From: Schmidtea nova
Taxonomy: Eukaryota
Assembly (NCBI GenBank): GCA_044892505.1
Contig: CM097883.1
Span: 185,690,001 to 185,754,000 of the forward strand
Length of the DNA: 64,000 bases
Direction: 5' to 3'
Shown: piece after piece, positions 6,155 to 31,103 of the stretch
Position numbering within the stretch: position 1 is the first letter of the stretch
How the letters are laid out: each line of letters starts with the position of its first letter
The notes under the pieces: model-generated
What the model was told of the DNA's origin: nothing
The model's database searches: none
What the model saw: the letters and a program-made list of their open reading frames with translations, nothing else
Program-made: the position numbers and the translations under genes

Positions 6155-9100
6155 TGTTGGGCCAAAACGCAATTTGTTTTAATAAAGCGATAACCCCATA
6201 GGTAGAGAACGCGCAAGATTCCATTTTTAACCTTAGCTGCCATTAAAAATCTAACAATTACGTGGAAAACACCAATAGGTGAAGTGAAATCAAAACACAT
6301 CAACCGGTAGAGTACGCGCTAGCTGCGAGTTTGTAAGTATTTTCACTGAAATCTCGAGAAAAATTAAAAGCAGAACGTTTGGAAGTTAGAATAGGCGGAA
6401 AACCCATTGAAAGTGCCCATAAAGAACAGAATTTTGTCATAAAATCTTTAGTACAGAAAAATTAACAAAATTTTAGAAGAAAATTGTAAATTTATCACAA
6501 AATTTCACATTTAACAGTAGAGAGAATTGATATGGATCGAAATATCATAAATTAAATCAAATCGAACAAATTTCGATTCAAACATAAAAATTTTGAATTA
6601 AAATAAATTATTTATAGTTTATAAAAAATTATTATACAAAAATATGGAATTAATTTTCGGAAAATCATTAGAATTAATTTAGAAAAAATTAAGAGAAAAT
6701 TCTAGAACAATTTGTTTTATTGCACTAGTGAAGATAGGGTAAAATTGATGGTATATATACCGCCATCAAAATGGCAGAATTCAGAATTTGTGAAAAAATT
6801 TTCGTTTTGTTTAACTAAGAATTTGTACCATTTTCAACAGAAATTGTGGGAGAAAAATTTCTTAATTGTTTCTGAAAATTTTACAGAGTTTTTGGCAGAA
6901 TTTTTGTGAAGATTTCGTGGAGAAAATTCTTTAGAGAGATTATCAGAATTTTTGAATTTCTGTGAAAGAGGAAGAAGACACTGATTCCCGGAAGACCAAG
7001 ATAAAAACGAACATTTTATAAAAGAAATTTTCGTGTGAATTTGAAGATTTTCCGGAGTTTGCGAATCACTGAAAGAAATGTAAGGATTAATTGTTTTTTT
7101 TTAACTTGTTTTTGAGGGGTTTGGGATCGTCGATCATCATGCCTGACGATCATCCCATTCCTCGCACTTTATTAATTGATATGGTATTTGTTATTTGTTA
7201 ATTTTAATTTAATGCTAACACCTTATTATGATATTATTAAAATAAAATATTTGATTCATATTTTATTCGATTTAGTTTTAAATTTTTTCTTGTTGTTATT
7301 ACTATCATCACAAATTCCCAAATTAATTAAAATTTCATATGAGCAATTATCTAAATACGAAAAAATAAAATTTTTTTTTTCTCCCTTATCTTCTGACGAT
7401 CCGTCCAGCCTTGGTTGTGCGGATCTGTTAGTAGCCTGGGTGGATCGTTCTCTGATTAGTAATCGGCCAGCCCATATTTCCACTTTAAGGTGAGGCTCAT
7501 ACATCCATAATCTCGTCATCCCAACTGGGGAATCGTGGTATGGCCAAGAGCAAGGATTTGTTATACTAATGATTTTTATTATAATAGAGTAGCATATTTT
7601 TATTATCTACATAAGCAATTTCGTAATACAACATAAAATTTTCTAACTCATGTCTTGAAATCTAAAATAGGAAATATTACTGATTAAAAAATCGACTCGT
7701 ACTCACCTTCACCTTCACACTCTCAACGACGATCATCTTATGAGAAAACGCAAGAAAAATGGATGCTAATGATGAAAAGAAATCGTTCGAATTAATGCTC
7801 AAATCCAATGGAATGGTAATGAAACCGAAATTAACCTTACTCGATGTCGAAAAATATTCGTTGAAAAATTTATAACTTATTTTTATTTTATTTTTATTTA
7901 GCATATAAAGACTTTTTAGATTTTGGATTTCGAAATTTATGGATAAAAATGTATTATTATTTCATTTTGGTCAAGAATAAAAATTTGCTTTTTATTATAC
8001 TGCAAAAATTTTATAATGAAAAAATTGTAAACCAAAAATTTTCCTAATATTGTTATGATATAAAAGATTTTGTCATTTTATAAAATTCCTAAGAATTTAT
8101 AAATCAAAACTTATATTGAAATCCATAAAAATTTTAAATCGAAAATATTATTATTATATTGAAAATTTTATCATCTTAAAAAAATCCAAAATTTCAAAAT
8201 TTTATAGTAAAATTTTTATTATATATATATATATATACTTAAAATATAAAAATTCGAACCTAAAAATGTATATTATAAAAATTAGAAATTTTATTATTAT
8301 ATTATTTTCATAAAATTATAAATTTAAAATTTATAAAAAGTATTATAAAAATGTATATTATAAAAATTAGAAATCTTATTATTATATTATTTTCATAAAA
8401 TTATAAATTTAAAATTTATAAAAAGTATTATAAAAATGTATATTATAAAAATTAGAAATTTTATTATTATTTAATTTTCATAAGATTATAAATTTAAAAT
8501 TTGTAAAAAGTATTATAAAAATTATTATTATTATTTTGATATAAAAATTATTATTATTATTTTAATTTTAAAAATATTTTTTATGATTTAAATATAGTAT
8601 AATATAACTACCCCACGATACCTCAAAATCATAACGCATCTCTATTTGCAAAAAATTACATCCATTTCATTCAATAACATTTTCCATACTAATACACACG
8701 CAACATCTATTTAAAATACAATATACACACATACACAGTATCATTCAATAACATTCAACAATCACATACACACCAACAAACCATACCAAAAATTCCACCC
8801 AGACTTGCTAGTTAGCATCGTACGTCCAATCACACGCACAAACACTCAATTGTTCCCATCACCTATCCACAAATCGCACGCAAACACGATAATAATAAAG
8901 TCATACAAATCTAAAACAATATTACACACCATCATTCTATCTCACTCTACTCAACATACCATCGCATTCAACTCATACAATCACCCTTAATATCATTTAA
9001 TTGCATTTTTTTTGTGGCGAATCAACAAGTTCTGCCAAAACCTTTTCATAACAATCTATGGAAATCATACAAAAATCTACCATTATACGGCGAGGGTACA

Positions 9101-10330
9101 TAAGAAATCCGTAAAGTAAAATAATTTACCGGACGGAGGACTAAGTAAATCTGATCCAACAATGCCGCATAAACAGAAAAGATTTTTTTATTAAAGCCCA
9201 ATAAAACTCATAATTTTGATTGGAAAATCCAACAAAACTCATAATTGTGAAATTATTTTATTCAAAATCAAATAGTCTAAGATAATTGTGAAATTGTTTT
9301 ATTCAGGATCAAATAGTTCATTAGCATGATTAAAAAATCAAATAGTCCAACTGCATGGCTTCTTGTAAAGATAAGACGGTACCAAACTGTCCATAAATCG
9401 TTCTCTGCATATGAGATGATAATAGAAATACAAATCGTTGGAATAAATTTCGACACATTGGGTCATGATCTCCAATCTTCGATGCCCAGAGTTTGTAGAG
9501 GGTGATCTTGCGGTGAAAAGTAACAAAATTTACCTAAAAAGATAAATCAAAAAATAGAATATCTCCTTCAAAATGAATATTACCGTTTTTTTTGTTCGGG
9601 AAATTTCCTATTGAACTCTGATATAATTGCTATTATACTCCGGATCTCTAAAATGGCTAATTGAGAAAAATTTTATAAAAAACCCGAACTTACCGTTAAG
9701 ACCACATCGGGATTTTTGTTTCTTGTAAATGGATATATATATGTATATATGAGTATATATACATTAATTGTATTATATATATGTATATTTGAATTATATT
9801 CGTTTTAAATATATTTATTAACAGACTTAAACAAGGAGTTTAAGATTTGTTAATTTAGTAATAAACTGGCCAAATGAAGAATTAAATTCAAACTTTTCGA
9901 TGCATAATTAAGATTCATTCTTAAAAAATTGTATTATTTATTATTTATCCTAAAATTACAATATTAGAAAAATTTAATGTTTATTAGTGTTTTCGAATGT
10001 TCGGAATAATTTATTTGTATTTATAATTATGTAAAATATTTATGTAAATTTCTGATAAAATTTGTATTGAAAGCTTATAGGTAAATCATATAAGAAGGGA
10101 CAAAATGGGCATTAAACCTTCTATCGGTAGCCCTTGGACCCAGGAGATATTCGGTCAATCATAGTTTCGTATTGACGACGCTCACTGATTGCGAATACAC
10201 ACCCACTTGTTACAGTACCAACGTTACATAGTGACGGGTAACAAGATGGTAATTTCAATGTTTTATGTGTTGAGTTGTTGATGAGAGCCATAGAAACGTC
10301 AAGGTCATATTGACGGTCAACAACCCACCA
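6155..10330 (+). repeat. 5' LTR (4176 bp)
   Basis: Starts tgttgggcc and ends aacccacca. Near-identical to 27012-31103 and followed by the PBS. Confidence 0.97.
8261..8515. repeat. 85-bp AT-rich tandem repeat inside the LTR (3 units; 2 units at 29118-29287 in the 3' LTR)
   Basis: Unit starts taaaaatgtatattataaaaattagaaa at 8261, 8346 and 8431, versus 29118 and 29203. Confidence 0.9.
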
Positions 10331-10340: not shown

Positions 10341-10358
10341 TGGGGGCTCAGCCGGGAT
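10341..10358 (+). promoter_or_regulatory. Primer-binding site complementary to a tRNA-Pro 3' end
   Basis: tgggggctcagccgggat, 10 nt downstream of the 5' LTR. Compare the canonical tRNA-Pro PBS TGGGGGCTCGTCCGGGAT. Confidence 0.88.
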
Positions 10359-11658
10359 TATCTCATCTAGTTTGTTTTGTTTGAAGCGAAAATCAATGAA
10401 AATGGCTTTACGTGGGAATTTATTAATGTTTTTGCGTTGTAAAGAAAAAAATATTATAGAGAAAAACGAGATTTAGTGAAAGTTTTATAAAAATCGATGA
10501 ACATTTGAATATTTTCGACGAAAATGGGAAAAATTTATGTTTGATTATTAATATTATTTATATTGCTATTATTATTTTTACGACAATAGTTATTTTATAC
10601 CATTATAAGTATTATTATTAGGATTNNNNNNNNNNNNNNNNNNNNNNNNNNNNNNNNNNNNNNNNNNNNNNNNNNNNNNNNNNNNNNNNNNNNNNNNNNN
10701 NNNNNNNNNNNNNNNNNNNNNNNNNNNNNNNNNNNNNNNNNNNNNNNNNNNNNNNNNNNNNNNNNNNNNNNNNNNNNNNNNNNNNNNNNNNNNNNNNNNN
10801 NNNNNNNNNNNNNNNNNNNNNNNNNNNNNNNNNNNNNNNNNNNNNNNNNNNNNNNNNNNNNNNNNNNNNNNNNNNNNNNNNNNNNNNNNNNNNNNNNNNN
10901 NNNNNNNNNNNNNNNNNNNNNNNNNNNNNNNNNNNNNNNNNNNNNNNNNNNNNNNNNNNNNNAAGTAGCAAATATTGTTTAAGTACCATTTTGAGTTAAG
11001 ATTCGAAAAAATCTTTTGGAAAATAAAAAAGTTCTGAATCAGAATCACCGTGAAAGCGATTAGAAGTAAAGTCGAAAAACGATCTTTAAGCCCCACGAGC
11101 AGCCAACGATTGAAATTGAGAACGAATAATAACAACAGAGCGTAGAATAAGTGTCTTTAATATAAATAAACGTCAAACATAGCATAGGATAAAAAGTTGA
11201 GCCGGAATGATCCAAAAGTCTAAGAAAATCACGGGTAAAATAGTCAAAATACCAAATCGCGACAAATGAATCCCACAAACAACCAATAATCGTAAAATTG
11301 TCCAAATAACGTCCATAGAGCGTAGAAAGTGGGTACGCAGCACCGGCAAGTGGAAAATACCTCGAAAGATAGAATATGACACCGGAATCCGCAAAAAGTG
11401 TAGAAAATCACCGCTAAGAAATTTAAAAGATTGAAGAAATTACGGAATTTTGACCCAAGAAAGCAGTAACACCGAGTAATAATGATAGTATAGGTATCAG
11501 GATTATTATTATTGTCATTTTAACAGTAGAAACAGTAATTTGGTCAAATAATATAAAAATAAGACTGATTTATTATATTTTTATTATAATTATTACGTAA
11601 TAATATATAAGAAATATATTGGGTAAATTGCCGTATAACGCGCATTATTATTATTATA

Positions 11659-11691
<33 letters not shown>

Positions 11692-12870
11692 ATTATCATT
11701 TTAGTTATTATTACTAGTAGTACNNNNNNNNNNNNNNNNNNNNNNNNNNNNNNNNNNNNNNNNNNNNNNNNNNNNNNNNNNNNNNNNNNNNNNNNNNNNN
11801 NNNNNNNNNNNNNNNNNNNNNNNNNNNNNNNNNNNNNNNNNNNNNNNNNNNNNNNNNCATGAGTGTTACTGTTGATATCATTATTATTACTAGCGATATT
11901 GGTGTTATGTTGGTTGATTGAGAATGACTGAGGTATGACCCCTGTAATTTTATTTTGTTGGCAAAGAAGGACATGGAAAGTATCGGGTCTAAATGAAATA
12001 ACAACGAAAATGGAGCAATACGTGAATTGTTTGTTTCAATTGATATAATTTAATAAGTTTGGGGTTTGAATGATGGAAAAGATGGATTGTTGAAGTCAGA
12101 ATGATGCATGGTGATATTGGAATGTTGATCGCGACTCAATTCGGGAATCGAAATCGGGAATAACTCTAAAATCTTATGAAATCATAAAATGATATCTAGC
12201 AACGACTTAAAAAACAAATATAATGATATAGAACCAAACGAGAAAACGTGAGACTTAACGTAAATACGAAAATTTTGAGATGCACAAAATTAGGAACCTA
12301 GTAAAAGGAGATGTTATACGACCATAAGATATGGAATAGAGTTCACGCGAATCACTTAGAGAATAAATATTCGAATACACAAAAATTGATTTCAGTAAGC
12401 GGAGAATTACCGAAAATTTGCGAGTACTGTAAAAAAAAATATAATTATCTCAAAATTGATAAAAAGTGTAAAAATCATGAAAAAATTGTGTAAATAAATG
12501 TTTAATTATTTTTTATGTAGAAAATATTAGTATATTCAAAAAATATAAAAATCATAAAAATTATGTACATAATGGCTGATTATTTTATTTATATTATTTT
12601 ATTCGAAAAATATCGAATATAGACGAATGGAGAAAATTAAAATATATAAAAATGTAAAAAATATAAAAATATAAAAATATATGTATAAAAATGGCTGAAT
12701 ATTCTGTTAGTAGTAGTTTTGAAAAAATACAAAAATATATAAAAAATTATAAAAATTTGTGTATAAAGATATTGAAGTTTTTATTATTTATTTTCGTTCA
12801 AATTTTAATAAATGGTTGACTCATGTTGATTCAAAAAGTTGTAAAAAATTAGTCATCATGAATATTTTAG

Positions 12871-13353
12871 ATGCAATCGATTGAGCATATTTTACTACGA
12901 ATCGAGTCGTTTTTCGATTTTGAAAAGAACCCATTGCAGGTGTTGAGCGAGAAACTCGAACGAGTAAACGGAATAAAAGATGAATTATTGTTGAATCCTA
13001 GACCACAACCTAAGAACCTAATAGTGATTGCAGGAATTGTGGTAACAACAAACGATATTTCGTTAGAAACGGTTTATAAATATCAACGATTGCGACTGAA
13101 TAATCCGAATTTTAATCTAAAAATACAAGAATGGATTGGTAAAATCGATAAAATCATGGACAAGCTAGAGAGATCGATAAATCAACAGATCGATTCGTTC
13201 GAAAGATGTTATATTTGTCGACAAAAAGAAGCGAACATTTTATTCATGCCATGTGGGCATTTGTGTTATTGCCAGCCGTGCTCTAGAGAAATAAAGAGAT
13301 GCGTAATCTGCAAACAGACAATTGATGACAAAATCGTCGTATTTTGTTCGTAA
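12871..13353 (+). CDS. 160-aa protein with C-terminal IAP/MDM-type C3HC4 RING (putative E3 ligase)
   Basis: CYICRQKEANILFMPCGHLCYCQPCSREIKRCVICKQTIDDKIVVFCS* has the IAP-type RING spacing and terminus. ttttag immediately precedes the ATG. Confidence 0.88.
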   Translation: MQSIEHILLRIESFFDFEKNPLQVLSEKLERVNGIKDELLLNPRPQPKNLIVIAGIVVTTNDISLETVYKYQRLRLNNPNFNLKIQEWIGKIDKIMDKLERSINQQIDSFERCYICRQKEANILFMPCGHLCYCQPCSREIKRCVICKQTIDDKIVVFCS

Positions 13354-13790
13354 CGAATGTCGTTCGAAATAAATGTTCTAGCCGGGTTGAACTTCGTTGA
13401 TCATCCAGTACTCTAAACCGTTGTAAAAATTAAATAAACACAGAACACTAGGTAATTAATGACTGAGAATCGTGTAAAAAACATAACAAGTAACGGCTAA
13501 TGCCGAAAAATCAAACATTAGGAAAATGGGAATTTGTGACAAAGTTACTTTTGTTTTCTTTTTGAATTTTCTTTATTATTATTATTATAAATCCTCCTCA
13601 TCATTATTATATTGATACAAATTTCATTACTATAAGTCTTCCTCATTACTATTATTATATTGATTATCTATATTATATCGACCATTAGGACGAGCAATAA
13701 GTAGCGTAATAAAAATTGATTTTATAAGGAGAATCTTCTGAAATAGAGCGATAAATGAGTGTCTGAGTAGGAAACGGGAAAATAGTACAC

Positions 13791-13859
13791 AAATTCATAA
13801 CTGAGCTATCAAAAGATAGTACGCCAAATTCTAACTGAGCTATCAAAAGATAGTACGTC
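13791..13859. repeat. 35-bp tandem duplication, each unit with a ctatc-aaaa-gatag hairpin
   Basis: aaattcataactgagctatcaaaagatagtacgcc followed by aaattctaactgagctatcaaaagatagtacgtc. Confidence 0.85.
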
Positions 13860-14372
13860 AATATTTTTGTTGTTAAAAATTAGCAGACAACAAACGGGGA
13901 AAAAACTTGATCACCCTGAGGAAAGAGAGTAGAATAGGATATCCATCGCATATGTTGGCGAAATTTCGTTTGTGACTGATCATCACAAATTGCGAAACGA
14001 GTTAACGCGATTATTTTACGATTTTGAATTAGGTGAAAGGGTAACCCGTAATGTTCGTCTTATACACCAGTTTACCAAGGCATGATTGGTACACTGAGGT
14101 AGAAGACAGTAACATGAATAAAGAGAAAGTTGCTGAGAAAATTAGATGCAGATTTTAGAAAGTCGAAAGAGTAAAAAGTGAATTTCGATGATAATAGTAG
14201 ATGATAGTATAACGAGAAAAGATTCTACCATGGTAGTTAAGGAATAAATTCGTAATTGAGAAGTAGTAGAACAATTTGAGAAAAACAGTCAGCAACAGCG
14301 AATTTATTTAAAAATTTGAGAATAGGGAAACGAGTGATTGAATAGCATAAAGAGAACAATTGAAGACGGCGG

Positions 14373-14650
14373 AGATAATTGAGAAACTTTGAGAGTCCAT
14401 TAAGAGACTTTGAGAGTCCAGATAATTGAGAAACTTTGAGAGTTCAGGAAGAGACTTTGAGAGTCCAGTAAGAGACTTTGAGAGTCCAGTAAGAGACTTT
14501 GAGAGTCCAGATAATTGAGAGACTTTGAGAGTCCAGGTAATTTAGAGACTTTGAGAGTCCAGATAATTGAGCGCTCTGGGAGAGACTTTGAGAGTCCAGA
14601 TAATTGAGAAACTTTGAGAGTTCATGTATGTGAGAGACTCTGAGAGTCCA
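14373..14650. repeat. Minisatellite: 11 copies of core ga(g/a)actttgagagt(c/t)ca with short variable linkers
   Basis: Counted directly. Linkers include gtaa, gataatt and ggtaattta. Lies in the non-coding leader of the 1035-aa ORF. Confidence 0.9.
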
Positions 14651-15409
14651 ATGTTTGTGAATATTGTTGAGAAATTTAGGAAAACGTTTGAGAGATAGAA
14701 TTAAATAAAACTGCGCAGTTATAATTTCGTTATGACAGAGAGAAACGTTGAACGAGAATACTTAAGGTGTAGTAATATAAACCGTTAACAAGAGCAGATA
14801 AAAGATATCGAGAAATACTTAGGAAATAAAATAATGGCCATGAATAGATAACGAACAAGACATTTTTTCCTCGAATGCCGAGATGAGTATGATTATACTG
14901 TTATTATAGTATTAGTATTGTTATTATTATTGTTATTATTATTATTATTATCAGGGTATAGATAATTGATACGACTATATAGACAATTATTACGAGATAT
15001 AGATAATTTAAAATCTGAGCTCAGAGTAGAAGGGGGGTAAATAGCGTCGATGAAGAAGCGATTTTTTATTTAGATTGTCCAACAGATCAAAGCCAAGCCA
15101 AGAGATAGTCAAATCAATCAGTTATTGAAGAGGTATATATAGAAGAAAAGAAGAAAAAGAAGTCTAATTGAAAAGGAAAGAAGTAAAAGAAAATAAATCA
15201 AAGAAGATCCAATTGAAGATAAAAGAGAGATCAGCAATCGATATTAAACGCAAATCGATAATATTACCAAACCAACGAAGTTCATAAAGTCGAAAGGTAG
15301 AGTCAAATCTCTAAAGAAACGACGAAAGGAAATTACAAAGAAGCAAAGCTGATAAATAAAGAAGTAAAATCCACAATATTAGAAGTTTGTAGCCGATTTT
15401 CAGAAAGAA

Positions 15410-19311: not shown

Positions 19312-19405
19312 AAATTTAAAACCAGTGTAAATAAAATGTAAAAATGTGAATATGAATAAAACTTGGTATAAAGAGCAAAACGAAAAAATTATAAATTATT
19401 TTAGA

Positions 19406-20809
19406 ATGCAGACCGAGAATCAGCAGAAACAAGAGGAATTGATCGAACTATATCAGATACTACAGAGACAACGGATAGAACCAACAGAATTTCAAGAAAG
19501 ATTTAAATGTAAAGTATGTAGAAATTTATTGATAGAACCCAGACAAACTGAATGTGGATGTCGAATATGCACTAATTGCGTGATGAAAATAATACGAACA
19601 AAACAGAAGCTATGTCCTGAATGTGGTGAAGCAATAATAGACCAATTTGACCAAACCAGACCAGATATCGCAATGAATCGGGAAATAATGAACGCAGCAA
19701 CAACCTGTCCAAATAAACCATGTGCATGGAGTGGGCCAATAAAATGGATCGCCAAACACCTTTATAATTGTGATGATACGAAAGCCAAATGCAAGTGGTG
19801 TGAAGAAGAAATTTTGAAGAAAGTCAAAGACAGTCATGAGGAAATGTGTGAACAACGACAGGAAATCTGTGAGTTTTGCAACGAAACAGACGCTTGGATA
19901 GTGTTAAAAGATGAGCATTGGAATATAGAAGAAGGGCAAGTATGTGACGAGTATGAAGGTAATTGTAATCAATGTGGAATGGCAGAAAACGTGAAGCTAA
20001 AAGAACATTGGGAAATATGCGAAAAGAAGCCTACTGCATGTCCACTAAAATTATTCAATTGCAAAGCGAGATTACCAAAATAGGAAATACAAAAGCATGT
20101 GGATGAAAATAGTGTAAATCATTTGAGAACCATTGTGGAAGCTATTGGAGCAACCGCGCTGGTAATTGGAGAAGCCAACACAGAAATAAAATCACACAAA
20201 ATCATGATACAAGAGATGTTGGATACGAGAGGAAATTTTGAAAGAATAAGAGAACAAATGATCCAAAAAATGATACTATTAGACCAGAAAATAGCAGAAA
20301 TATCAACAATCCAACAAAGATTGGAAAGCATATTGCCAACAATGGAAGAACTACCCGTCACACCCTACTATTGGAAAATCACAGAATTTACAGAGAAATT
20401 GAGACTAGCAAGAGAAGGAGGTCAACGTGTATGGACAAGTCCACCTTGTCACAGTTGGAAACATGGTTACAAGCTTAGATTCAAAGTATATCTAACGGGA
20501 GACGGACTAGGAGCCGGAACTCATTTATCTGTATATTTTCAAATATGCAAAGGAGATTATGATGATTGGTTAGAATGGCCCTACGATTGCGATATAACTA
20601 TGATGATCGGAACAAAGGAAAACAACGTTCGGGAAGTATTCAGACCAAACTTGAGGAAGGTAGAAGCAGCTTATAAGAAGCCGATCGAAAACTACAACGT
20701 AGCTGTAGGAAATCCACGTTTTATTGCACTACATTATTTAACCATAGAACAATCATTATATTTGGTAAATAATATCCTGTATCTGATTATCGAAGTAAGA
20801 AAGCCGTAG
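19406..20809 (+). CDS. TRAF-family protein (RING, TRAF zinc fingers, coiled coil, MATH) interrupted by one in-frame TAG at 20081-20083
   Basis: RING CKVCRNLLIEPRQTECGCRICTNC...CPEC; zinc finger CPNKPCAWSGPIKWIAKHLYNC; MATH YYWKITEF...SPP...GYKLRFKVYLTGDGLGAGTHLSVYFQICKGDYDDWLEWP. Track ORFs 19346-20083 and 20099-20809 are in the same frame (LPK*EIQKHVDENSVNHL). The start could alternatively be the ATG at 19352. Confidence 0.9.
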
Positions 20810-21041: not shown

Positions 21042-22211
21042 ATGACTGAAAGGAAGATCGTGAAAATACGAGAAGATGACAGATCATTCAAATGTTTATG
21101 CGAATTAATGAAAAGAGATAAAGAAAAGATGTCAAAACCAATTACCTCAGAAATGATCCATTGTCGATTTACACGAACAATATCGAATGTTCCTAAGGAA
21201 AGGAGTTATGGAAAATTCAAAATTATTGATGAAACGTTAAAAAACGAGAACCGAAGATATATAACCTTTTTACAACAAGACAACTTCTATGAAAAGCAAT
21301 ACAGAAAATTTGCCAAAGATGGTTTGTATTTTGCAGGGACAATTGAGAAACCCGATAAAGTAGCCTGTGTATTTTGCAGAATTGAAATAGAACCTTGGAG
21401 AATTAACGATGATCCACTAACAGAACATAGAAAACTTTCACCCACATGCCAGTTTGTGTTAAAGGCTTGCGAAAAACCAAGAAAATCAGCAACAATGAAC
21501 AATAATGAAGAAGAAAAACCCAAAATAGTAACGATAACTTCAACAGGTCCAGCAAAGATACGATTCATAGAAGTTGACCCAAAATACACGATTAATGGGA
21601 GAACTAACACTTTTGTAGATAAAAAGATGGGTATCAGATTAGCAATAGAAGGTTTTTATGCAATAAATGAATCAACCGCTGAATGTTCAGAGTGTGGAAT
21701 ACAATATCAATTACCAAAAATGGAAGGAGAATACCTGAAACACAACGAATATTGTAAATATAGAGAAGAATTATATGAAGACGAAGAACCGATCAATTAT
21801 AAAAACCCAGAGATGCCTGTTAATGAATTATTAGTAGACAAGATATTAGATGAACCACGAACTCAAAAGGCAATGGAATGCACCGGCAAAAGCGAAATAT
21901 TTATGAAAGAAGTCATCAGAGAGAGATTGAGAAGAAATGGAGAAACATTTGGATCAACCCTAGAATTCTTTAAAGCTATAATACAGTTCACCAGAAAATC
22001 CCAAGTTGTCAACCCAGAATCATGTATCAAGAAAATTATATTAAATAAACACCCCTGTTCAATCTGTTGGATAAAGAAAGTGGAAGTTATTCATTTACCG
22101 TGTGGACATCTGTTAGCATGTGAAAATTGTAGCAATAAATTGAGATTGTGCTCAATGTGCAGGAAACCGATCGACAAACGGATCAAGGGATTCCGTTATG
22201 CCGATCAATAA
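21042..22211 (+). CDS. Inhibitor-of-apoptosis (IAP)-like protein: BIR, degenerate BIR, UBA-like segment, RING
   Basis: Canonical CX2CX16HX6C BIR (CVFC...DDPLTEHRKLSPTC); a second BIR-like unit (GRTNTF...LAIEGFY...CSEC...KHNEYC); a UBA-like segment (KAMECTG...VIRERLRRNGETF); RING CSICWIKKVEVIHLPCGHLLACENC...CSMCRKPI. Confidence 0.92.
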   Translation: MTERKIVKIREDDRSFKCLCELMKRDKEKMSKPITSEMIHCRFTRTISNVPKERSYGKFKIIDETLKNENRRYITFLQQDNFYEKQYRKFAKDGLYFAGTIEKPDKVACVFCRIEIEPWRINDDPLTEHRKLSPTCQFVLKACEKPRKSATMNNNEEEKPKIVTITSTGPAKIRFIEVDPKYTINGRTNTFVDKKMGIRLAIEGFYAINESTAECSECGIQYQLPKMEGEYLKHNEYCKYREELYEDEEPINYKNPEMPVNELLVDKILDEPRTQKAMECTGKSEIFMKEVIRERLRRNGETFGSTLEFFKAIIQFTRKSQVVNPESCIKKIILNKHPCSICWIKKVEVIHLPCGHLLACENCSNKLRLCSMCRKPIDKRIKGFRYADQ

Positions 22212-22345: not shown

Positions 22346-23893
22346 ATGAATATACAACAATTGATAGACATCCTAGATCAGGAGATGGCAAAAAGACAAG
22401 AGCAACTAGATCAAATGAGAAGCTATGAACAAAGAATGGAAGCCATCCAAGAGAACGTTAAAATGATTGAAAAACGAACCCAAGAGATCAATAAAATAAA
22501 AGAGGAAAATGAGGAACTACGAAAGATAATAAATGACAAGGCGCATATCGAAGCTGAACTAGGAAATTATAAACGAGAGTACAGGGAAATGGAGAGAAAA
22601 CTCGAGCACGAACAACGAAAGTCGGTACCGTTGAAAAACCAAGCGAGATTAAGAAAAGATGAGCTCGAAACTTATAAAAGAGATACCGAAACAAGATATG
22701 ACAACTCCATAAGATTCTATCAGCAGCAACTCGAAAGTGAAAGGAACAGATATGAAGCCATGAAAAAGAAATGGGAAAAGTGTCGAGATGAAGCATTTGC
22801 TTTGAGAGGACAACCTCAAAAGAAGCTTAAAGTCAGAACAAGAAACATTGAGCCTGAAAGCGAACAAGAAAAGATCATTAGAAAAGTTAAAGCAGAGGCT
22901 AGGAAATGGAAACAAGAACACCAAGATTTATTGGAAATGGCTCGACACAGAAAAACGCTACAGGAAGAATTATTAAGACGGAGAGACGTTCAAATCGAAG
23001 CTCTGAAAGAGGAATGTCATTGGTATGCAGACATACGTCATGAGGAAACGGAGAAACTCAGAAAAGAAACATTCCAGTTGAAAACGAGCGGACAATTCAG
23101 AGAACGAAGCATAAGGCATCAAATAAAGTGGCTAAAAGAACAAGCCAGAACATGGAAAAAGACCTGGAAAAGAACTCGAGACGAACTACGAGAATTCCCA
23201 AAGAAGCTGATGTCAATAAATGAAGCAGAATTGTGGGAGAATGCAGAAAAGCAAGAGATAGAAAACAAAGAATTAAGACGGCAAGTTCAATTAAAAACTG
23301 AATGGAATCAAAGGAGAATGAAATTTACCAGGAATCAAGAAGCTCGTATCAAATATCTGGAATTTGAAAATAGGCAATATGATCAACAGAAGAATATGGA
23401 TGATCAAAGTATTGAAGAACTGACAATAGAATTGACTATTGCAAACCGTGAAGTCAACGGATATCGAGGAACAAATACTCATAAAGATATTGTCATTCAA
23501 CACCAGCGACGGCAGATAGAAGAGACAAAGGCCGAATGTGAAAAAGCAATCCAGCAATCCCAAAAGGAAATTGAAATGGCTATCCAAAGTTTGGAAGAAA
23601 ACCGCCAAAACTATGAAAGAGAAATTGAAAGGCTGAGAAATATGGAAAATACGAGAGAGCTCGAGATAGAAAAGGAACAGCTGAGTGAAGAACTCGATTA
23701 TATGACATATTTGCTAGATGAAGAGATAGAAATCTCAAGAACTTTGCGAGAAAGAGTTCAGAGCCTACAAAATCAACCTCCAATAATTCTATGGCCACTA
23801 TATCCAACACCAATACAACCTGTACATTTGGAGCAAGAAAATCCTCAAATCGAAGATGAAGGGTTCGGAGAAATTGAAGAGACGTTTGTATGA
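22346..23893 (+). CDS. 515-aa long coiled-coil protein, function unknown
   Basis: Uninterrupted E/K/R/Q-rich heptad-like ORF with an acidic, Pro-rich tail; tttcag-a-ATG start context. Confidence 0.8.
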   Translation: MNIQQLIDILDQEMAKRQEQLDQMRSYEQRMEAIQENVKMIEKRTQEINKIKEENEELRKIINDKAHIEAELGNYKREYREMERKLEHEQRKSVPLKNQARLRKDELETYKRDTETRYDNSIRFYQQQLESERNRYEAMKKKWEKCRDEAFALRGQPQKKLKVRTRNIEPESEQEKIIRKVKAEARKWKQEHQDLLEMARHRKTLQEELLRRRDVQIEALKEECHWYADIRHEETEKLRKETFQLKTSGQFRERSIRHQIKWLKEQARTWKKTWKRTRDELREFPKKLMSINEAELWENAEKQEIENKELRRQVQLKTEWNQRRMKFTRNQEARIKYLEFENRQYDQQKNMDDQSIEELTIELTIANREVNGYRGTNTHKDIVIQHQRRQIEETKAECEKAIQQSQKEIEMAIQSLEENRQNYEREIERLRNMENTRELEIEKEQLSEELDYMTYLLDEEIEISRTLRERVQSLQNQPPIILWPLYPTPIQPVHLEQENPQIEDEGFGEIEETFV

Positions 23894-24192: not shown

Positions 24193-24768
24193 ATGAGACT
24201 ATTGAAGCAAAGATCAGAACCAGAACAACAGACGATATCAAAAGAAAGATTCAAAAAATGGAAGAGAGCAACAGAGCAATATTATCAAGACCAAATAGAT
24301 CAATTGAAGGAAGTAATGAGCAAAGATAGAAAATATATCGCACAAATGGAACAAAAGTGCGAGACGATGGAAATAATCAAGCGAGAAAATTATCTATTTC
24401 GCCAACAAAATGGTCTTACCCAAAAATATTGCGACAGACAGAAGCAAGAGATTGACAGACTCAAAAGGGAAATAAACAGTGAACAGAACACTGATAATAA
24501 AAGGAGAATTAAGATCGAGTCATTACAACGATCCTTGAAGAGCAAACAGAAAAAGATTATCAAAAGAGAAAAACAGATAATAAAGTTGAAAAGTGAAATC
24601 ATAGAAGCAAAGTTTGATACATTCAAAGCAAAGAAAGTTGTAGAAATCAAAACGGCAGAAAATTACGTCCTCAAAGAACAAAGGCGAAAAGAAGCAGACG
24701 AGATTGCAAAAATGGGTAACTGGAAGCCAGAGAGTCCGTTAAAGCTAAATGAAGAGACGAAAGAATAA
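24193..24768 (+). CDS. 191-aa basic coiled-coil protein, function unknown
   Basis: Open K/E/Q/R-rich ORF; attatag-aaa-ATG start context. Confidence 0.72.
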   Translation: MRLLKQRSEPEQQTISKERFKKWKRATEQYYQDQIDQLKEVMSKDRKYIAQMEQKCETMEIIKRENYLFRQQNGLTQKYCDRQKQEIDRLKREINSEQNTDNKRRIKIESLQRSLKSKQKKIIKREKQIIKLKSEIIEAKFDTFKAKKVVEIKTAENYVLKEQRRKEADEIAKMGNWKPESPLKLNEETKE

Positions 24769-24863: not shown

Positions 24864-25709
24864 ATGAGCAATCTAATGAGGATCACAACAACCATCATGA
24901 TATTTATGATTACAAACTGCCGAAGCGAAGAAGCATTGAGTCAATGTCAAGCAAGCCATCCATTTAGAAGGTCCGATAGCATCTGTGTAAGCTATCAAGA
25001 AATTTGTATCACCAGAAATGAGGAGTGTCAACAGATACAATTACAATGTCAACAATGTCCTAAATCCAGTGAAGATTCAATCACCATCCTTAAACAATTG
25101 AGAAATGAAACTCAACAATTAATCCAACTACAAATCTCCTTAACCAAAAGAAACAATCTTCAACTAAAGAAACAGCTCGAAAACCAATCATCTTTCAAAC
25201 AGTTGACTACCGAACTAAAGAAATTGAGCAAGTTAATAGAAAAATCTCTAAATAATAAAGATGAAGTTAACGAGGAAAGATCAAGTTTTACAGAGGAGTT
25301 AAATCAAAAACTAAAAACTCAACTTCATCAGACCGAGAGAATTATAAAGCAATTGGTTTTATCCGAAAAGCAAAAAGAGATTATCCCTAAACAAGGATCA
25401 ACAAACGAAGACGTCAGAGACCGAGAAGCAGCCATCACAGTCGTTCTACAGGGCATCAGTCTTTTCGCGGTCATAATGATCTTTAGCATTGTTGCATCAA
25501 TCGGATTAGAGAAAATGAAATTAGAGAAAGCGAAAATACAATTGAATACAATCAAACGAACCACACATGAAGACAACAACCCTTCAGAAAATTTTCTGCG
25601 ATCAATATTTGAAGATCCAGTTCAAGAACAGCCTAATCCTGAGACATCTACAACCTCGGTGCAGATGAATTACTTCTATAACAATAATACGATTCAATTC
25701 ACCTTTTGA
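24864..25709 (+). CDS. 281-aa predicted type I membrane protein (signal peptide, Cys-rich head, coiled coil, TM, tail with PVQE)
   Basis: Hydrophobic N-terminus (ITTTIMIFMITNCRS), six Cys in the head, L/Q/K heptads, TM AAITVVLQGISLFAVIMIFSIVASIGL, and a tail containing DPVQEQP (25617-25631). Confidence 0.8.
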   Translation: MSNLMRITTTIMIFMITNCRSEEALSQCQASHPFRRSDSICVSYQEICITRNEECQQIQLQCQQCPKSSEDSITILKQLRNETQQLIQLQISLTKRNNLQLKKQLENQSSFKQLTTELKKLSKLIEKSLNNKDEVNEERSSFTEELNQKLKTQLHQTERIIKQLVLSEKQKEIIPKQGSTNEDVRDREAAITVVLQGISLFAVIMIFSIVASIGLEKMKLEKAKIQLNTIKRTTHEDNNPSENFLRSIFEDPVQEQPNPETSTTSVQMNYFYNNNTIQFTF

Positions 25710-25888
25710 CAATTCATGTACTTTCTTCCATTCATTTAATCTATCTATCTATTTGTATTCTCATCTTGAACAATATTTCATCATCATTAAATCATAACCC
25801 TGTTTAAAACATCGTAACGCCCTTGTAAATAGCAAAAATTATTTATCATCATTATTCAATTTCTCTATTAGAAACACAAAAATCAACA

Positions 25889-26692
25889 ATGAAATCGTAC
25901 CGAGAAGTTTTTCTAATCGCCATGATCACAACAATTTATTGTCATCTCGAAGAAACCCAGAAATCAAGCCAATTAAACCCAAATCAACAATGTAATAAAG
26001 AACCATTTGAAATCTCTAACAACAAACAACTATCCGAAAAGATTGAGCAAGCCAAAATCGAAATTCAAAATACCCTTTTCAATCAAAATGATGAAATTTC
26101 AGGTCTAAAGAGAATAGCAAGGATAATATTAGCAGACTTAGCGATCAGAGATATATATGAGGATATTTTTGATAGTGATCGAGAAACCCGTGATGCAATA
26201 AAAAGTCTCACCAAAGAATTAAAAATGAATATAGGCAAGTTAATCGATCAGCTAACGATAAATTCATCAAGTCCGAAATGTCTGAAACAAATCCAGCAAA
26301 TTCATCATAACCTGTCCCAGCAGATTTCCGAAGTAGGAAACCAAACGGCACAACAACTGAGAAAGGCTTATTTCGAAAACCTGGCATTTAGGAATAAAAT
26401 CCACGATCACATAAACGAGATATCGAAACCGGATAACAATCAAGACAGAGACAAGTGCAGAGCATCCCTCCTATCATCCGAACGAATTCTCGATATCTGC
26501 CTGATCATCCTTAACTTTTTCCTAATAATCGGAATTTGTGGTATAATATGGTTAGGCTTGACCACCACAAGAATGATGAACAACATGACCTCCGAACAAT
26601 CCGGAAGCGAAGATGACAAGAAACGGTTGATCAATACCGAGTCATTCAAACTATCCCAGCCGAAGACCCAACAAATTCAATTCAAAAGTTAA
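25889..26692 (+). CDS. 267-aa predicted type I membrane protein (signal peptide, coiled coil, TM, short tail)
   Basis: N-terminus VFLIAMITTIYC, heptad-rich ectodomain, TM ILDICLIILNFFLIIGICGIIWLGL, tail ending QIQFKS. Confidence 0.8.
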   Translation: MKSYREVFLIAMITTIYCHLEETQKSSQLNPNQQCNKEPFEISNNKQLSEKIEQAKIEIQNTLFNQNDEISGLKRIARIILADLAIRDIYEDIFDSDRETRDAIKSLTKELKMNIGKLIDQLTINSSSPKCLKQIQQIHHNLSQQISEVGNQTAQQLRKAYFENLAFRNKIHDHINEISKPDNNQDRDKCRASLLSSERILDICLIILNFFLIIGICGIIWLGLTTTRMMNNMTSEQSGSEDDKKRLINTESFKLSQPKTQQIQFKS

Positions 26693-27011
26693 ATTCAACA
26701 AACTTAATAAACTTGATAAAACTTTTATCCGAGTCGCTGTAGACTCATATCGAACTTTGATTAGCCGCTGTAGGCACATATATTACATTTATTTTTGCTT
26801 GTGAGTCGATGTAGACTCATATTAAGGTATACGTATTAAATTTTTATTAATTTTTATAAACTTTTTATTTTTATTGTCGCGAACGGCATGGCATGATCAC
26901 GACCAAGTAGCTCGTGTATAATGTACAACCTTTTGACCTTTGATTAGTCTTGGTTCTTAACCCCTCTGAGAAATTGCGGGACGCAATCTTTGCGGGCCCC
27001 CGAGTATTTTA

Positions 27012-30000
27012 TGTTGGGCCAAAACGCAATTTGTTTTAATAAAGCGATAACCCCATAGGTAGAGAACGCGCAAGATTCCATTTTTAACCTTAGCTGCCAT
27101 TAAAAATCTAACAATTACGTGGAAAACACCAAAAGGTGAAGTGAAATCAAAACACATCAACCGGTAGAGTACGCGCTAGCTGCGAGTTTGTAAGTCTTTT
27201 CACTGAAATCTCGAGAAAAATTAAAAGCAGAACGTTTGGAAGTTAGAATAGGCGGAAAACCCATTGAAAGTGCCCATAAAGAACAGAATTTTGTCATAAA
27301 ATCTTCAGTACAGAAAAATTAACAAAATTTTAGAAGAAAATTGTAAATTTATCACAAAATTTCACATTTAACAGTAGAGAGAATTGATATGGATCGAAAT
27401 ATCATAAATTAAATCAAATCGAACAAATTTCGATTCAAACATAAAAATTTTGAATTAAAATAAATTATTTATAGTTTATAAAAAATTATTATACAAAAAT
27501 ATGGAATTAATTTTCGGAAAATCATTAGAATTAATTTAGAAAAAATTAAGAGAAAATTCTAGAACAATTTGTTTTATTGCACTAGTGAAGATAGGGTAAA
27601 ATTGATGGTATATATACCGCCATCAAAATGGCAGAATTCAGAATTTGTGAAAAAATTTTCGTTTTGTTTAACTAAGAATTTGTACCATTTTCAACAGAAA
27701 TTGTGGGAGAAAAATTTCTTAATTGTTTCTGAAAATTTTACAGAGTTTTTGGCAGAATTTTTGTGAAGATTTCGTGGAGAAAATTCTTTAGAGAGATTAT
27801 CAGAATTTTTGAATTTCTGTGAAAGAGGAAGAAGACACTGATTCCCGGAAGACCAAAATAAAACGAACATTTTATAAAAGAAATTTTCGTGTGAATTTGA
27901 AGATTTTCCGGAGTTTGCGAATCACTGAAAGAAATGTAAGGATTAATTGTTTTTTTTTAACTTGTTTTTGAGGGGTTTGGGATCGTCGATCATCATGCCT
28001 GACGATCATCCCATTCCTCGCACTTTATTAATTGATATGGTATTTGTTATTTGTTAATTTTAATTTAATGCTAACACCTTATTATGATATTATTAAAATA
28101 AAATATTTGATTCATATTTTATTCGATTTAGTTTTAAATTTTTTCTTGTTGTTATTACTATCATCACAAATTCCCAAATTAATTAAAATTTCATATGAGC
28201 ATTTATCTAAATACGAAAAAATAAAATTTTTTTTTCTCCCTTATCTTCTGACGATCCGTCCAGCCTTGGTTGTGCGGATCTGTTAGTAGCCTGGGTGGAT
28301 CGTTGTCTGATTAGTAATCGGCCAGCCCATATTTCCACTTTAAGGTGAGGCTCATACATCCATAATCTCGTCATCCCAACTGGGGAATCGTGGTATGGCC
28401 AAGAGCAAGGATTTGTTATACTAATGATTTTTATTATAATAGAGTAGCATATTTTTATTATCTACATAAGCAATTTCGTAATACAACATAAAATTTTCTA
28501 ACTCATGTCTTGAAATCTAAAATAGGAAATATTACTGATTAAAAAATCGACTCGTACTCACCTTCACCTTCACACTCTCAACGACGATCATCTTATGAGA
28601 AAACGCAAGAAAAATGGATGCTAATGATGAAAAGAAATCGTTCGAATTAATGCTCAAATCCAATGGAATGGTAATGAAACCGAAATTAACCTTACTCGAT
28701 GTCGAAAAATATTCGTTGAAAAATTTATAACTTATTTTTATTTTATTTTTATTTAGCATATAAAGACTTTTTAGATTTTGGATTTCGAAATTTATGGATA
28801 AAAATGTATTATTATTTCATTTTGGTCAAGAATAAAAATTTGCTTTTTATTATACTGCAAAAATTTTATAATGAAAAAATTGTAAACCAAAAATTTTCCT
28901 AATATTGTTATGATATAAAAGATTTTGTCATTTTATAAAATTCCTAAGAATTTATAAATCAAAACTTATATTGAAATCCATAAAAATTTTAAATCGAAAA
29001 TATTAGTATTATATTGAAAATTTTATCATCTTAAAAAAATCCAAAATTTCAAAATTTTATAGGAAAATTTTTATTATATATATATATATATATACTTAAA
29101 ATATAAAAATTCGAACCTAAAAATGTATATTATAAAAATTAGAAATTTTATTATTATATTATTTTCATAAAATTATAAATTTAAAATTTATAAAAAGTAT
29201 TATAAAAATGTATATTATAAAAATTAGAAATCTTATTATTATTTAATTTTCATAAGATTATAAATTTAAAATTTGTAAAAAGTATTATAAAAATTATTAT
29301 TATTATTTTGATATAAAAATTATTATTATTATTTTAATTTAAAAAATATTTTATATGATTTATATATAGTATAATATAACTACCCCACGATACCTCAAAA
29401 TCATAACGCATCTCTATTTGCAAAAAATTATATCCATTTCATTCAATAACATTTTCCATACTAATACACACGCAACATCTATTTAAAATACAATATACAC
29501 ACATACACAGTATCATTCAATAACATTCAACAATCACATACACACCAACAAACCATACCAAAAATTCCACCCAGACATGCTAGTTAGCATCGTACGTCCA
29601 ATCACACGCACAAACACTCAATTGTTCCCGTCACCTATCCACAAATCGCACGCAAACACGATAATAATAAAGTCATACAAATCTAAAACAATATTACACA
29701 CCATCATTCTATCTCACTCTACTCAACATACCATCGCATTCAACTCATACAATCACCCTTAATATCATTTAATTGCATTTTTTTTGTGGCGAATCAACAA
29801 GTTCTGCCAAAACCTTTTCATAACAATCTATGGAAATCATACAAAAATCTACCATTATACGGCGAGGGTACATAAGAAATCCGTAAAGTAAAATAATTTA
29901 ACGGACGGAGGACTAAGTAAATCTGATCCAACAATGCCGCATAAACAAAAAAGATTTTTTTATTAAAGCCCAATAAAACTCATAATTTTGATTGGAAAAT

Positions 30001-31103
30001 CCAACAAAACTCATAATTGTGAAATTATTTTATTCAAAATCAAATAGTCTAAGATAATTGTGAAATTGTTTTATTCAGGATCAAATAGTTCATTAGCATG
30101 ATTAAAAAATCAAATAGTCCAACTGCATGGCTTCTTGTAAAGATAAGACGGTACCAAACTGTCCATAAATCGTTCTCTGCATATGAGATGATAATAGAAA
30201 TACAAATCGTTGGAATAAATTTCGACACATTGGGTCATGATCTCCAATCTTCGATGCCCAGAGTTTGTAGAGGGTGATCTTGCGGTGAAAAGTAACAAAA
30301 TTTACCTGAAAAGATAAATCAAAAAATAGAATATCTCCTTCAAAATGAATATTACCGTTTTTTTTTGTTCGGGAAATTTCCTATTGAACTCTGATATAAT
30401 TGCTATTATACTCCGGATCTCTAAAATGGCTAATTGAGAAAAATTTTATAAAAAACCCGAACTTACCGTTAAGACCACATCGGGATTTTTGTTTCTTGTA
30501 AATGGATATATATATGTATATATGAGTATATATACATTAATTGTATTATATATATGTATATTTGAATTATATTCGTTTTAAATATATTTATTAACAGACT
30601 TAAACAAGGAGTTTAAGATTTGTTAATTTAGTAATAAACTGGCCAAATGAAGAATTAAATTCAAACTTTTCGATGCATAATTAAGATTCATTCTTAAAAA
30701 ATTGTATTATTTATTATTTATCCTAAAATTACAATATTAGAAAAATTTAATGTTTATTAGTGTTTTCGAATGTTCGGAATAATTTATTTGTATTTATAAT
30801 TATGTAAAATAATTATGTAAATTTCTGATAAAATTTGTATTGAAAGCTTATAGGTAAATCATATAAGAAGGGACAAAATGGGCATTAAACCTTCTATCGG
30901 TAGCCCTTGGACCCAGGAGATATTCGGTCAATCATAGTTTCGTATTGACGACGCTCACTGATTGCGAATACACACCCACTTGTTACAGTACCAACGTTAC
31001 ATAGTGACGGGTAACAAGATGGTAATTTCAATGTTTTATGTGTTGAGTTGTTGATGAGAGCCATAGAAACGTCAAGGTCATATTGACGGTCAACAACCCA
31101 CCA
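27012..31103 (+). repeat. 3' LTR (4092 bp)
   Basis: Same termini as the 5' LTR. Differs by roughly 20 substitutions/small indels (counted by eye) and one fewer 85-bp tandem unit. Followed by TSD cgat. Confidence 0.97.

Follow-up and report, generated by a model that had tools for sequence, protein, structure and literature searches.

Introduction

Rice Dasheng/RIRE2, LARDs, maize Bs1 and mouse ETn/MusD are examples of non-autonomous LTR partners, which have LTR, primer site and leader in common with an autonomous helper and reach high copy numbers although they encode neither RT nor integrase. To our knowledge, these elements have little or no maintained coding capacity, and a LARD is defined by a long interior that has none. 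In replication-defective transforming retroviruses, signalling genes replace replication genes so that a helper virus is needed, and complex retroviruses carry accessory genes.

In planarians, Burro1-4/GYPSM1 are giant Ty3/gypsy elements with multi-kb LTRs and thousands of copies; their description lists RING, Smc-like, MATH/TRAF, BIR, SUMO-like and ankyrin modules, as well as a separate accessory TRAF ORF in a Dugesia element (PMC6431247). TRAF, BIR, RING and ankyrin cargo is already published for the Burro group. Furthermore, an IAP with BIR and RING that is encoded by Burro1 (B-IAP) reportedly shields stem cells against death mediated by caspases (Lee et al. 2026 Dev Cell, as cited in PMC13465017), and a TRAF expansion has been reported in a planarian (PMC6109357).

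Here, we analyse an LTR element of Schmidtea nova, termed the satellite, together with a related family, termed the helper. With Burro1-4/GYPSM1, the satellite shares multi-kb LTRs, a size of tens of kb, a TSD and MATH/TRAF, BIR, RING and ankyrin modules, and the helper follows the published order Gag-CCHC-MATH-SUMO-like-Env-PR-RT-RH-IN-ANK in a frame of ~5,000 aa. However, Burro1-4/GYPSM1 as described are autonomous, whereas here the accessory genes are located on a separate old lineage that is devoid of Gag core, Env, RT, RH and IN, and the helper has no accessory genes downstream. As the satellite does not contain the ~5,000-aa polyprotein, we count it among the derivatives of a Burro-type family rather than the autonomous Burro elements. 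Its IAP resembles B-IAP in being an element-borne BIR+RING protein; however, B-IAP rides Burro1 itself, whereas the satellite IAP is carried by a non-autonomous partner, of which 14 of the 39 sampled copies are without it.

The satellite is similar to non-autonomous LTR partners in its helper-shared LTR, primer site and leader and in the absence of RT and integrase, but it has kept nine genes, eight of them under purifying selection, plus its own protease. It also differs from a LARD, since it has nine genes of which eight have an omega <0.3 on shared variants. Signalling cargo, dependence on a helper and probably spliced accessory genes are features in common with defective transforming and complex retroviruses. 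In contrast to the defective transforming retroviruses, several genes are involved here in a long-lived, endogenous partnership, and the cargo was passed down within the element clade and not newly acquired from the host. In the literature searched, we found no Burro cargo that is split onto a separate passenger element.

Results

A complete LTR element that retains a protease

The window, i.e. the whole stretch of 64,000 nucleotides that was analysed, contains the satellite with a total size of 24.9 kb (Table 1). The initial annotation of this DNA described a complete LTR element with ~4.1-kb LTRs, a TSD and a primer-binding-like site, and this description is confirmed. Alignment of the two LTRs over 4089 bases shows 18 mismatches as well as five gaps, one of which is a single 85-bp tandem unit; the 4-bp TSD CGAT is found on both sides, and the primer-binding-like site presumably corresponds to tRNA-Pro. 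There is no purine tract adjoining the 3' LTR. The flanks of the element are the two halves of a single decayed transposase, which we take to be mariner-type from its motifs and whose reading continues across the TSD. The leader likely holds a packaging signal.

Table 1. Features of the satellite, with positions in the window
Feature	Position	Strand	Remarks
Left TSD, CGAT	6151..6154	n/a	
5' LTR, 4176 bp, TG...CA ends	6155..10330	+	85-bp tandem array inside at 8261-8563; blocks 78-96% identical to helper LTR
Primer-binding-like site	10341..10358	+	10 nt downstream of 5' LTR; identical site in helper, similar one in sister families
Long leader	10359..15409	+	blocks 78-93% nt identity to helper; tandem array 14373-14650
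160-aa IAP-type RING protein (RING160)	12871..13353	+	also in helper leader, 82% aa over 120 codons; sister families 26-29%
1035-aa mini-polyprotein	15410..18517	+	in-frame mosaic of four helper pieces, 40-62% aa identity to helper
211-aa protein	18676..19311	+	C-terminal half homologous (33-39%) to the small gene that precedes TRAF in sister Burro families
TRAF, full-length: RING, zinc fingers, coiled coil, MATH	19352..20809	+	in-frame stop 20081-20083 in this copy
389-aa IAP	21042..22211	+	BIR aa 80-139, C-terminal RING; best PDB sequence match cIAP1
515-aa coiled-coil protein	22346..23893	+	26-31% to homologues in sister Burro families, 26-44% to 11 homologous unnamed database proteins
191-aa coiled-coil protein	24193..24768	+	
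TM281	24864..25709	+	signal peptide, Cys-rich segment, coiled coil, transmembrane helix, short tail (by eye)
TM267	25889..26692	+	signal peptide, coiled coil, transmembrane helix, tail (by eye)
3' untranslated stretch	26717..27011	+	common to 20/20 helper copies examined
3' LTR, 4092 bp, TG...CA ends	27012..31103	+	
Right TSD, CGAT	31104..31107	n/a	

The nine genes are all intronless and located on the + strand, as had been annotated, and Pfam backs the RING protein, the ankyrin repeats, RING and MATH of the TRAF, and BIR and RING of the IAP. In seven of the nine genes, an acceptor-like YAG is found at most 6 nt from the ATG (background 0.166, p 9e-5), and it is retained across copies; candidate acceptors are located at 12870, 15403, 18673, 21036, 22344, 24189 and 24860.

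The element had been called pol-less. RT, RNase H and integrase are indeed absent; however, one pol-type domain had been overlooked, namely a retropepsin protease at aa 338-429 of the 1035-aa ORF, which scores above the Pfam RVP cut-off and whose DTG motif is intact in 20/20 other copies. A pol gene concealed in assembly gaps was rejected, because the element has two N stretches, both in the leader, which comprise 471 nt altogether and are too short for the ~3-kb RT-RH-IN block of the sister elements.

The 1035-aa mini-polyprotein joins a post-nucleocapsid segment, a SUMO-like segment, the protease and an ankyrin + FN3-like tail of a Burro-type helper polyprotein, which bears out the suspected relationship to Burro, and it contains no Gag core, MATH, Env, RT, RNase H or integrase. 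This four-piece mosaic is common to the sampled copies and intact in 17 of 20. Four signalling or ubiquitin modules had been proposed, and TRAF, IAP and RING stand. The ankyrin repeats are not a gene of their own, but are part of the protease-bearing ORF and derived from the Burro post-integrase region. With ankyrins that originate from the polyprotein of Burro and no stand-alone IkB-like gene, a role as an IkB-like inhibitor of NF-kB is unsupported. A search of the genome for the Rel domain gave no match, with equally silent controls, and a search for the TNF-ligand family was also uninformative. Cleavage-like motifs flank the protease and precede the ankyrin part in satellite and helper (pattern match only), and the ankyrin part may possibly be released by cleavage. 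RING160 has 29% identity to the C-terminal third of the satellite IAP gene and an omega of 0.58 in comparison to the helper (120 codons).

An autonomous helper with LTR, primer site and leader in common

The initial annotation proposed to search for an autonomous, pol-containing relative with the same LTR and primer site, and such a relative was found. The helper family (loci L010-L012) has its LTR, primer site and leader in common with the satellite at 78-96% identity. Its frame of ~5,000 aa encodes Gag-CCHC, MATH, a fusion glycoprotein (Env), PR, RT, RH, IN and ANK, and many of the 150 scored RT matches sit in open frames near 5,000 aa. All 20 helper 3' ends examined match the 3' UTR and LTR start of the satellite at 83-93%, and none of the 20 has a homologue of the downstream cargo cassette. 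With the enzymes absent and this helper located, the satellite is non-autonomous, as had been claimed.

Satellite and helper proteases form a clade (100/100) against the proteases of four sister families. Comparing the four coding pieces between satellite and helper results in a dS of 1.45-2.44 and an omega of 0.09-0.24; by these values, the shared coding pieces are old, with silent sites near saturation. None of the 150 scored protease matches (95-100% aa) lies in a frame >1081 aa, and the closest autonomous relative found has 62% aa identity in the protease; this search covers the matches listed, so that a rarer autonomous parent may be missed. With Pfam, no BCL2-like or dUTPase-like motifs were found in the helper segment examined and no BCL2-like motif in the ORFs of the window.

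The cargo cassette in sister Burro families

In sister Burro families, the polyprotein is followed by a homologue of the 211-aa gene, TRAF, a coiled coil and a membrane protein, and the cassette order with TRAF is syntenic at 11/20 zf-TRAF loci. Because of this synteny, the TRAF cassette is regarded as inherited within the Burro clade and not freshly captured. The IAP and two further genes were found in the satellite only, among the stretches examined. Fresh capture of a host gene as the origin of TRAF was considered and ruled out, as the sister families have TRAF in the same slot.

The TRAF architecture of RING, zinc fingers, coiled coil and MATH is complete on the intact copy L002. A second, degenerate BIR is possibly present in the satellite IAP when inspected by eye, and the 515-aa coiled-coil protein possibly corresponds to the 'Smc' motif reported for Burro. 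A word-index search with TRAF, IAP or the membrane-protein alignment gave zero matches, which reflects its low sensitivity because TRAFs and IAPs from PDB do match.

TM281 has 274 aa in other copies (TM274); the window copy has a frameshift near the C-terminus in comparison to all 38 other copies holding the gene. A gene with signal peptide, coiled coil and TM also follows TRAF and the coiled-coil gene in the sister families (174-213 aa). Comparing TM281 and TM267 to these genes gave hhalign probabilities of 0.2-0.4, and the window-shuffle z was at most 1.5 for TM274, with one TM267 pair at z 3.4. Since the genes agree only in architecture, slot and a C-terminal MNY-x-YK stretch, we leave their homology unproven. 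With a protein-language-model search, TM267 matched unnamed clusters only.

Many recent copies with cargo under purifying selection

Copies were sampled from the top 150 protease matches, and the sample is thus biased towards close and intact copies. For BIR, 150 matches with at least 98% identity were scored among 1312 candidates in the genome, and most of them have the same frame length as the satellite IAP. TSDs were found in two further copies, and LTR blocks are 98.6-99.8% alike within each of four copies. Together with the near-identical LTRs in the window, these TSDs confirm the proposed recent mobilisation; dispersed recent insertions with TSDs are also a feature of non-autonomous LTR partners. 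Both TRAF and IAP are missing from 14 of 39 informative copies, and only 17 of the 25 sampled copies having TRAF contain an intact gene. We thus conclude that the cargo is dispensable in cis for the spread of a copy.

Variants common to at least three copies have an omega of 0.139 compared to 0.371 for singletons (Fisher p 1.5e-19). After correction for the mutation spectrum, the shared-variant omega is 0.08-0.29 in eight genes, with TM281 at 0.24. The codon model yields an omega of 0.20 for TRAF, 0.27 for IAP and 0.16 for the coiled coil, but 0.82 for the last membrane gene TM267, which is near-neutral and frequently deleted. The cargo is thus under purifying selection except for TM267. Neutral evolution (dN/dS ~1) and genes disabled in most copies, which the initial annotation had listed as evidence against its reading, were not seen for TRAF, IAP and coiled coil and for TRAF, respectively.

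Discussion

We consider it probable that the element is one recent copy of an old, high-copy family of non-autonomous satellites of a Burro-type helper, that the helper proteins copy and insert it and that its selected cargo acts on host cell-survival signalling. Mobilisation by helper proteins is likely because LTR, primer site and leader are in common and the satellite has no such enzymes of its own. The helper supplies each enzyme that the satellite is without, and the cis ends are the same. The RNAs of both may be co-packaged; template switching would then have kept LTR and leader similar (78-96% nt), whereas the coding pieces drifted to near saturation. The satellite has retained the cassette of 211-aa gene, TRAF, coiled coil and membrane protein, which the sisters have and the helper does not. 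Downstream genes would be expressed via spliced RNAs, and the retained protease may cleave the mini-polyprotein. Given what is known of their families and the published Burro1 result, IAP, RING and TRAF might damp caspase-dependent death where the pair replicates, which would favour both; domain identity and the Burro1 citation are consistent with an anti-apoptotic role of the cargo.

Alternatively, the animal may depend on element-borne IAP and TRAF for stem-cell survival, with the satellite as a vehicle that amplifies a host-beneficial function. Such a host mutualism is possible, if somewhat unlikely. It agrees with the stem-cell protection reported for the Burro1-borne IAP (Lee et al. as cited in PMC13465017), with host TRAFs being required for cell survival in a planarian (PMC7586133) and with the satellite-IAP frame length of most scored BIR matches. 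However, the variants on which selection is seen recur in numerous recent copies at dispersed sites, which suggests that selection operates while the element replicates and not at few fixed loci, and Burro1 is reported as a PIWI-silenced transposon (PMC8532177). Host mutualism is compatible with the helper-satellite reading and differs from it in the level of selection.

A further reading, which we regard as unlikely, is a bipartite retroelement whose Burro genes are split over two co-packaged RNAs, the helper with Gag/Env/Pol and the satellite with an enlarged host-manipulating cassette (TRAF, IAP, membrane proteins). The two would be mutually dependent and cargo-less copies would be cheats, whereas TM281 would be a ligand-independent receptor, clustered by its coiled coil, that recruits the TRAF and IAP of the element.

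In its strongest form, the interpretation of the initial annotation would make the cargo a coherent captured mimic of the TNF-receptor-TRAF-cIAP-IkB pathway, in which TM281 would act as receptor and the ankyrins would stand for IkB; this is doubtful. The language-model look-alikes of TM281 are mostly TNFR-type (Grindelwald, TACI/BCMA, Wengen and Fn14, scores 0.76-0.79, a lead only), the sister families have a gene of the same architecture in the same position, and TM281 is under purifying selection. However, TM281 has no TNFR match in Pfam or among PDB sequences, and AlphaFold predicts its Cys-rich part as helical (pLDDT 55-72, shallow alignment) with no Foldseek match. Judged by the consensus of TRAF-binding motifs, a TRAF2-like PVQE motif in the tail is present only in the window copy, whereas other copies have PVPE or PVPR. 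Pfam, PDB, fold and motif comparisons thus revealed neither a conserved TRAF-binding motif nor a TNF-receptor fold in the membrane proteins, and a TNF-receptor identity of TM281 gained no support. Furthermore, TM281 is retained in copies without TRAF. With an inherited cassette, ankyrins from the polyprotein, no TNFR fold and copies without TRAF and IAP, the coherent pathway is not supported.

It is very unlikely that the satellite arose recently by deletion from an autonomous family outside the sample, with a purifying signal that stems from the parent and genes that are now decaying. Sister Burro families do produce such derivatives, as 9/20 copies examined have lost RT-RH-IN and match an autonomous sibling at 95-98% identity, but none of the close protease matches of the satellite lies in a long frame, the mosaic is common to the sampled copies and mostly intact, and the nearest autonomous relative found is distant in the protease. 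Lastly, an assembly artefact with a collapsed or missing pol has two short N stretches in the leader in its favour and can practically be dismissed, given the identical pol-less layout at independent loci and contigs of four public runs (one study) that cover 30/30 bins with no insertion-type joint among the rows listed.

Non-autonomous elements are expected to shed coding sequence, whereas in the satellite purifying selection has maintained eight genes ever since it parted from its helper, long enough ago for silent sites to be near saturation. With this retention, the level of selection on trans-acting transposon cargo becomes testable, that is, at which level such cargo is selected when its carrier cannot replicate itself and about one-third of the copies are without TRAF and IAP. 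The TRAF expansion that has been reported (PMC6109357) may to a large extent be due to element-borne copies, as may most BIR domains in the genome. Under the mutualism model of Burro1, stem-cell protection in this species is predicted to be provided by the satellite instead of the autonomous element.

Structure of the element

The initial annotation described a complete LTR element, and the TG...CA ends, the paired LTRs and a CGAT target site duplication (TSD) bear this out. The two LTRs differ by 18 mismatches over 4089 aligned bases and five gaps. The insertion split one decayed transposase, which we take to be mariner-type from its motifs; its halves form the flanks and read on across the TSD. 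The nine proposed same-strand genes were recovered. Pfam matches comprise RING (160 aa), ankyrin with retropepsin protease (1035 aa), RING with MATH (TRAF) and BIR with RING; the search of the element genes found no RT, RNase H or integrase, as claimed. The separate ankyrin gene did not hold, as the ankyrins share the 1035-aa ORF (the mini-polyprotein) with the overlooked protease. TRAF is interrupted by a stop in the window copy and intact in other copies. N stretches within the element sum to 471 nt. A GC-rich stretch common to the autonomous helper (described below) precedes the 3' LTR; no purine tract adjoins the LTR there, so plus-strand priming may be atypical.

Locations of features in the window and in fetched loci
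Feature	Location	Strand	Remark
5' LTR	window 6155-10330
3' LTR	window 27012-31103
Nine genes	window 12871-26692	+
Split transposase	window about 5700-6154, 31104-31500
GC-rich stretch	window 26940-27011
Possibly old related LTR fragment	window 4898-5017		120 bp upstream of element; 76% similarity to LTR 3' part
Separate gag-pol retroelement	window 41167-44615	minus	ordinary size, frameshifted; short direct repeats 41167-41236, 44546-44615
DDE_1 transposase fragment	window 2105-2842	minus
Proteasome-subunit fragment	window 39361-39717
Inverted repeat pair, MITE-like	window 35431-36032		216 nt
Nested, inverted satellite copy	L017-L019
Three IAP matches	G000:C1:384825449-384869516
Extra 482-aa gene	L021:235-1680, L043:261-1706, L130:2139-3584		satellite copies without TRAF and IAP
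Intronless TRAF	L110:4476-5837
Intronless TRAF	L131, about 3200-4600	minus
Pol-less sister sublineages	L132-L135, L137, L138, L141-L143, L103, L122/L104

A satellite and its probable helper

The claim of a recently mobilised, non-autonomous element is supported by abundant, near-identical pol-less copies, which we call the satellite. Queries with 600 bases of LTR, the protease and the BIR gave 3445, 6589 and 1312 candidates in the genome, which are lower bounds and not copy numbers. The scored matches were 97-100% (40 for the LTR), 95-100% (150 for the protease) and at least 98% identical (150 for the BIR). No frame above 1081 aa surrounds the protease among its 150 scored matches of 6589. Five of six fetched LTR pairs enclose the pol-less interior or its deletion form; the remaining one is the helper. 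One satellite copy sits nested and inverted within another, and two more copies have TSDs. Three IAP matches lie at intervals of ~22 kb, resembling a tandem array. Most of the best 150 BIR matches among 1295 candidates lie in frames as long as that of the satellite IAP, so the satellite may supply most BIR domains of the genome.

The helper (L010-L012) shares LTR, primer site and leader with the satellite, in blocks of 78-96% nucleotide identity. Its polyprotein contains CCHC knuckles, MATH, a viral fusion glycoprotein, PR, RT, RNase H, integrase, ankyrin and FN3, in the order that PMC6431247 gives for Burro. Open frames near 5,000 aa surround many of the 150 scored RT matches. In 20/20 helper copies a spacer of ~1 kb separates the polyprotein from the 3' LTR. 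The 3' ends of all 20 match the satellite over its 3' UTR and the beginning of its LTR (83-93%), and no homologue of the downstream cargo occurs in any of them.

The mini-polyprotein consists of four helper segments joined in frame, at 40-62% amino acid identity (dS 1.45-2.44, omega 0.09-0.24). Satellite and helper are much closer in the leader RING gene (82% amino acid identity, dS 0.15). In a protease tree of nine rows (one locus without a stop-free stretch was left out), satellite and helper group together at 100/100, and four sister Burro families fall outside. We conclude that the satellite is a non-autonomous partner of a Burro-type element, and that it is old, abundant and has been active recently. 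Ancient divergence of the coding pieces next to recent similarity of the cis regions is the pattern expected if co-packaged RNAs switched templates time and again; we thus infer that satellite and helper RNAs are co-packaged and recurrently switch templates.

Selection on the cargo

Downstream genes were sampled from 40 copies and upstream genes from 20, all from the top 150 protease matches, which biases the sample towards close copies. One locus (L046) had no match.

Genes present and intact among sampled satellite copies
Gene	Present	Intact	Copies
TRAF	25	17	40
IAP	25	22	40
211-aa gene	25	23	40
Coiled coil (515 aa)	39	26	40
191-aa gene	38	34	40
Mini-polyprotein	19	17	20
RING (presence limited mostly by fetched-stretch edge)	11	9	20
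TM274 (membrane gene)	38	31	40
TM264 (membrane gene)	27	20	40

Omega was 0.139 for variants in at least three copies and 0.371 for singletons (p 1.5e-19). After correction for the mutation spectrum, shared omega was 0.08-0.29 in eight genes and 0.69 in the last. Codon models gave 0.20 for TRAF (21 sequences), 0.27 for IAP (24), 0.16 for the coiled coil (36) and 0.82 for the last gene, TM267 (21), so the model is able to return near-neutral values. Functional cargo had been proposed over neutral decay: eight of the nine genes are under purifying selection, whereas the last is near-neutral. TRAF and IAP are both missing from 14/39 informative copies, by at least three breakpoints. Two sampled copies have an extra 482-aa membrane gene, which reads by eye as signal peptide, EGF-like region and TM with a terminal PDZ-type motif; Pfam and PDB searches with it gave no match.

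Origin of the cassette

Sister Burro families occupy 11/20 loci fetched from a zf-TRAF search, in the order polyprotein, 211-aa-like gene, TRAF, coiled-coil gene and signal peptide-coiled coil-TM gene. Three of the four sister families examined have a homologue of RING160 (the leader RING) upstream of Gag. From the shared order we conclude that the cassette was inherited within the Burro clade; the satellite has kept it and its helper lacks it. No homologue of IAP, the 191-aa gene or the second membrane gene was found in the examined zf-TRAF loci of sister families. In a midpoint-rooted MATH tree of ten rows, one group (100/100) holds the satellite TRAF, the element TRAFs, the MATH of the helper and an intronless TRAF (L110); three divergent TRAFs, which we presumed to belong to the host, fall outside it. 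The L110 TRAF is possibly a donor lineage or a domesticated copy. A second full-length intronless TRAF (L131) lies ~12 kb away on the other strand, and neither of the two has element genes as neighbours.

Among 20 fetched sister-family copies, nine lack RT-RH-IN, seven have it and four are uninformative. The nine are 95-98% identical to an autonomous sibling; the satellite, in contrast, is an old lineage. Amplified pol-less sublineages of sister families join protease in frame to ankyrin, dropping RT-RH-IN; some also lack the SUMO-like and Env region, and the joins lie near cleavage-like motifs.

Probable expression and proposed function

A YAG lies at most 6 nt from the start codon in 7/9 genes (background 0.166, p 9e-5); this threshold was picked after the distances were seen, and all four thresholds tried gave p below 0.003. 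The sites are conserved across copies. This suggests that the cargo may be made from spliced subgenomic RNAs or by trans-splicing. Motifs resembling cleavage sites are found repeatedly at the domain borders of the helper and on either side of the satellite protease segment; the retained protease therefore probably cuts the mini-polyprotein of which it is part.

The satellite family carries a complete TRAF and a complete IAP. The coherent TNFR/IkB pathway read from the sequence at first was not supported. For the window-copy membrane protein TM281, Pfam and PDB sequence searches found no TNFR match, and neither an AlphaFold model from a shallow alignment nor a tail motif check favoured TNFR identity; TNFR-type look-alikes of TM281 scored 0.76-0.79, a level that counts as no more than a lead. 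The ankyrins are of Burro origin, which speaks against a captured IkB mimic. A Rel-domain search for an NF-kB target gave no match, and neither did its controls.

PMC6431247 reports RING, Smc, MATH/TRAF, BIR, ankyrin, BCL2-like, SUMO-like and Env domains in Burro elements and proposes that they interfere with host apoptosis. According to PMC13465017, which cites Lee et al. 2026, Burro1 B-IAP protects stem cells. The satellite cargo may likewise be anti-apoptotic. The literature searched yielded no description of a pol-less Burro partner; the primary Burro papers and their supplements may bear on this. Both the cargo and the role proposed for it were known before; what is new is the split between helper and satellite.
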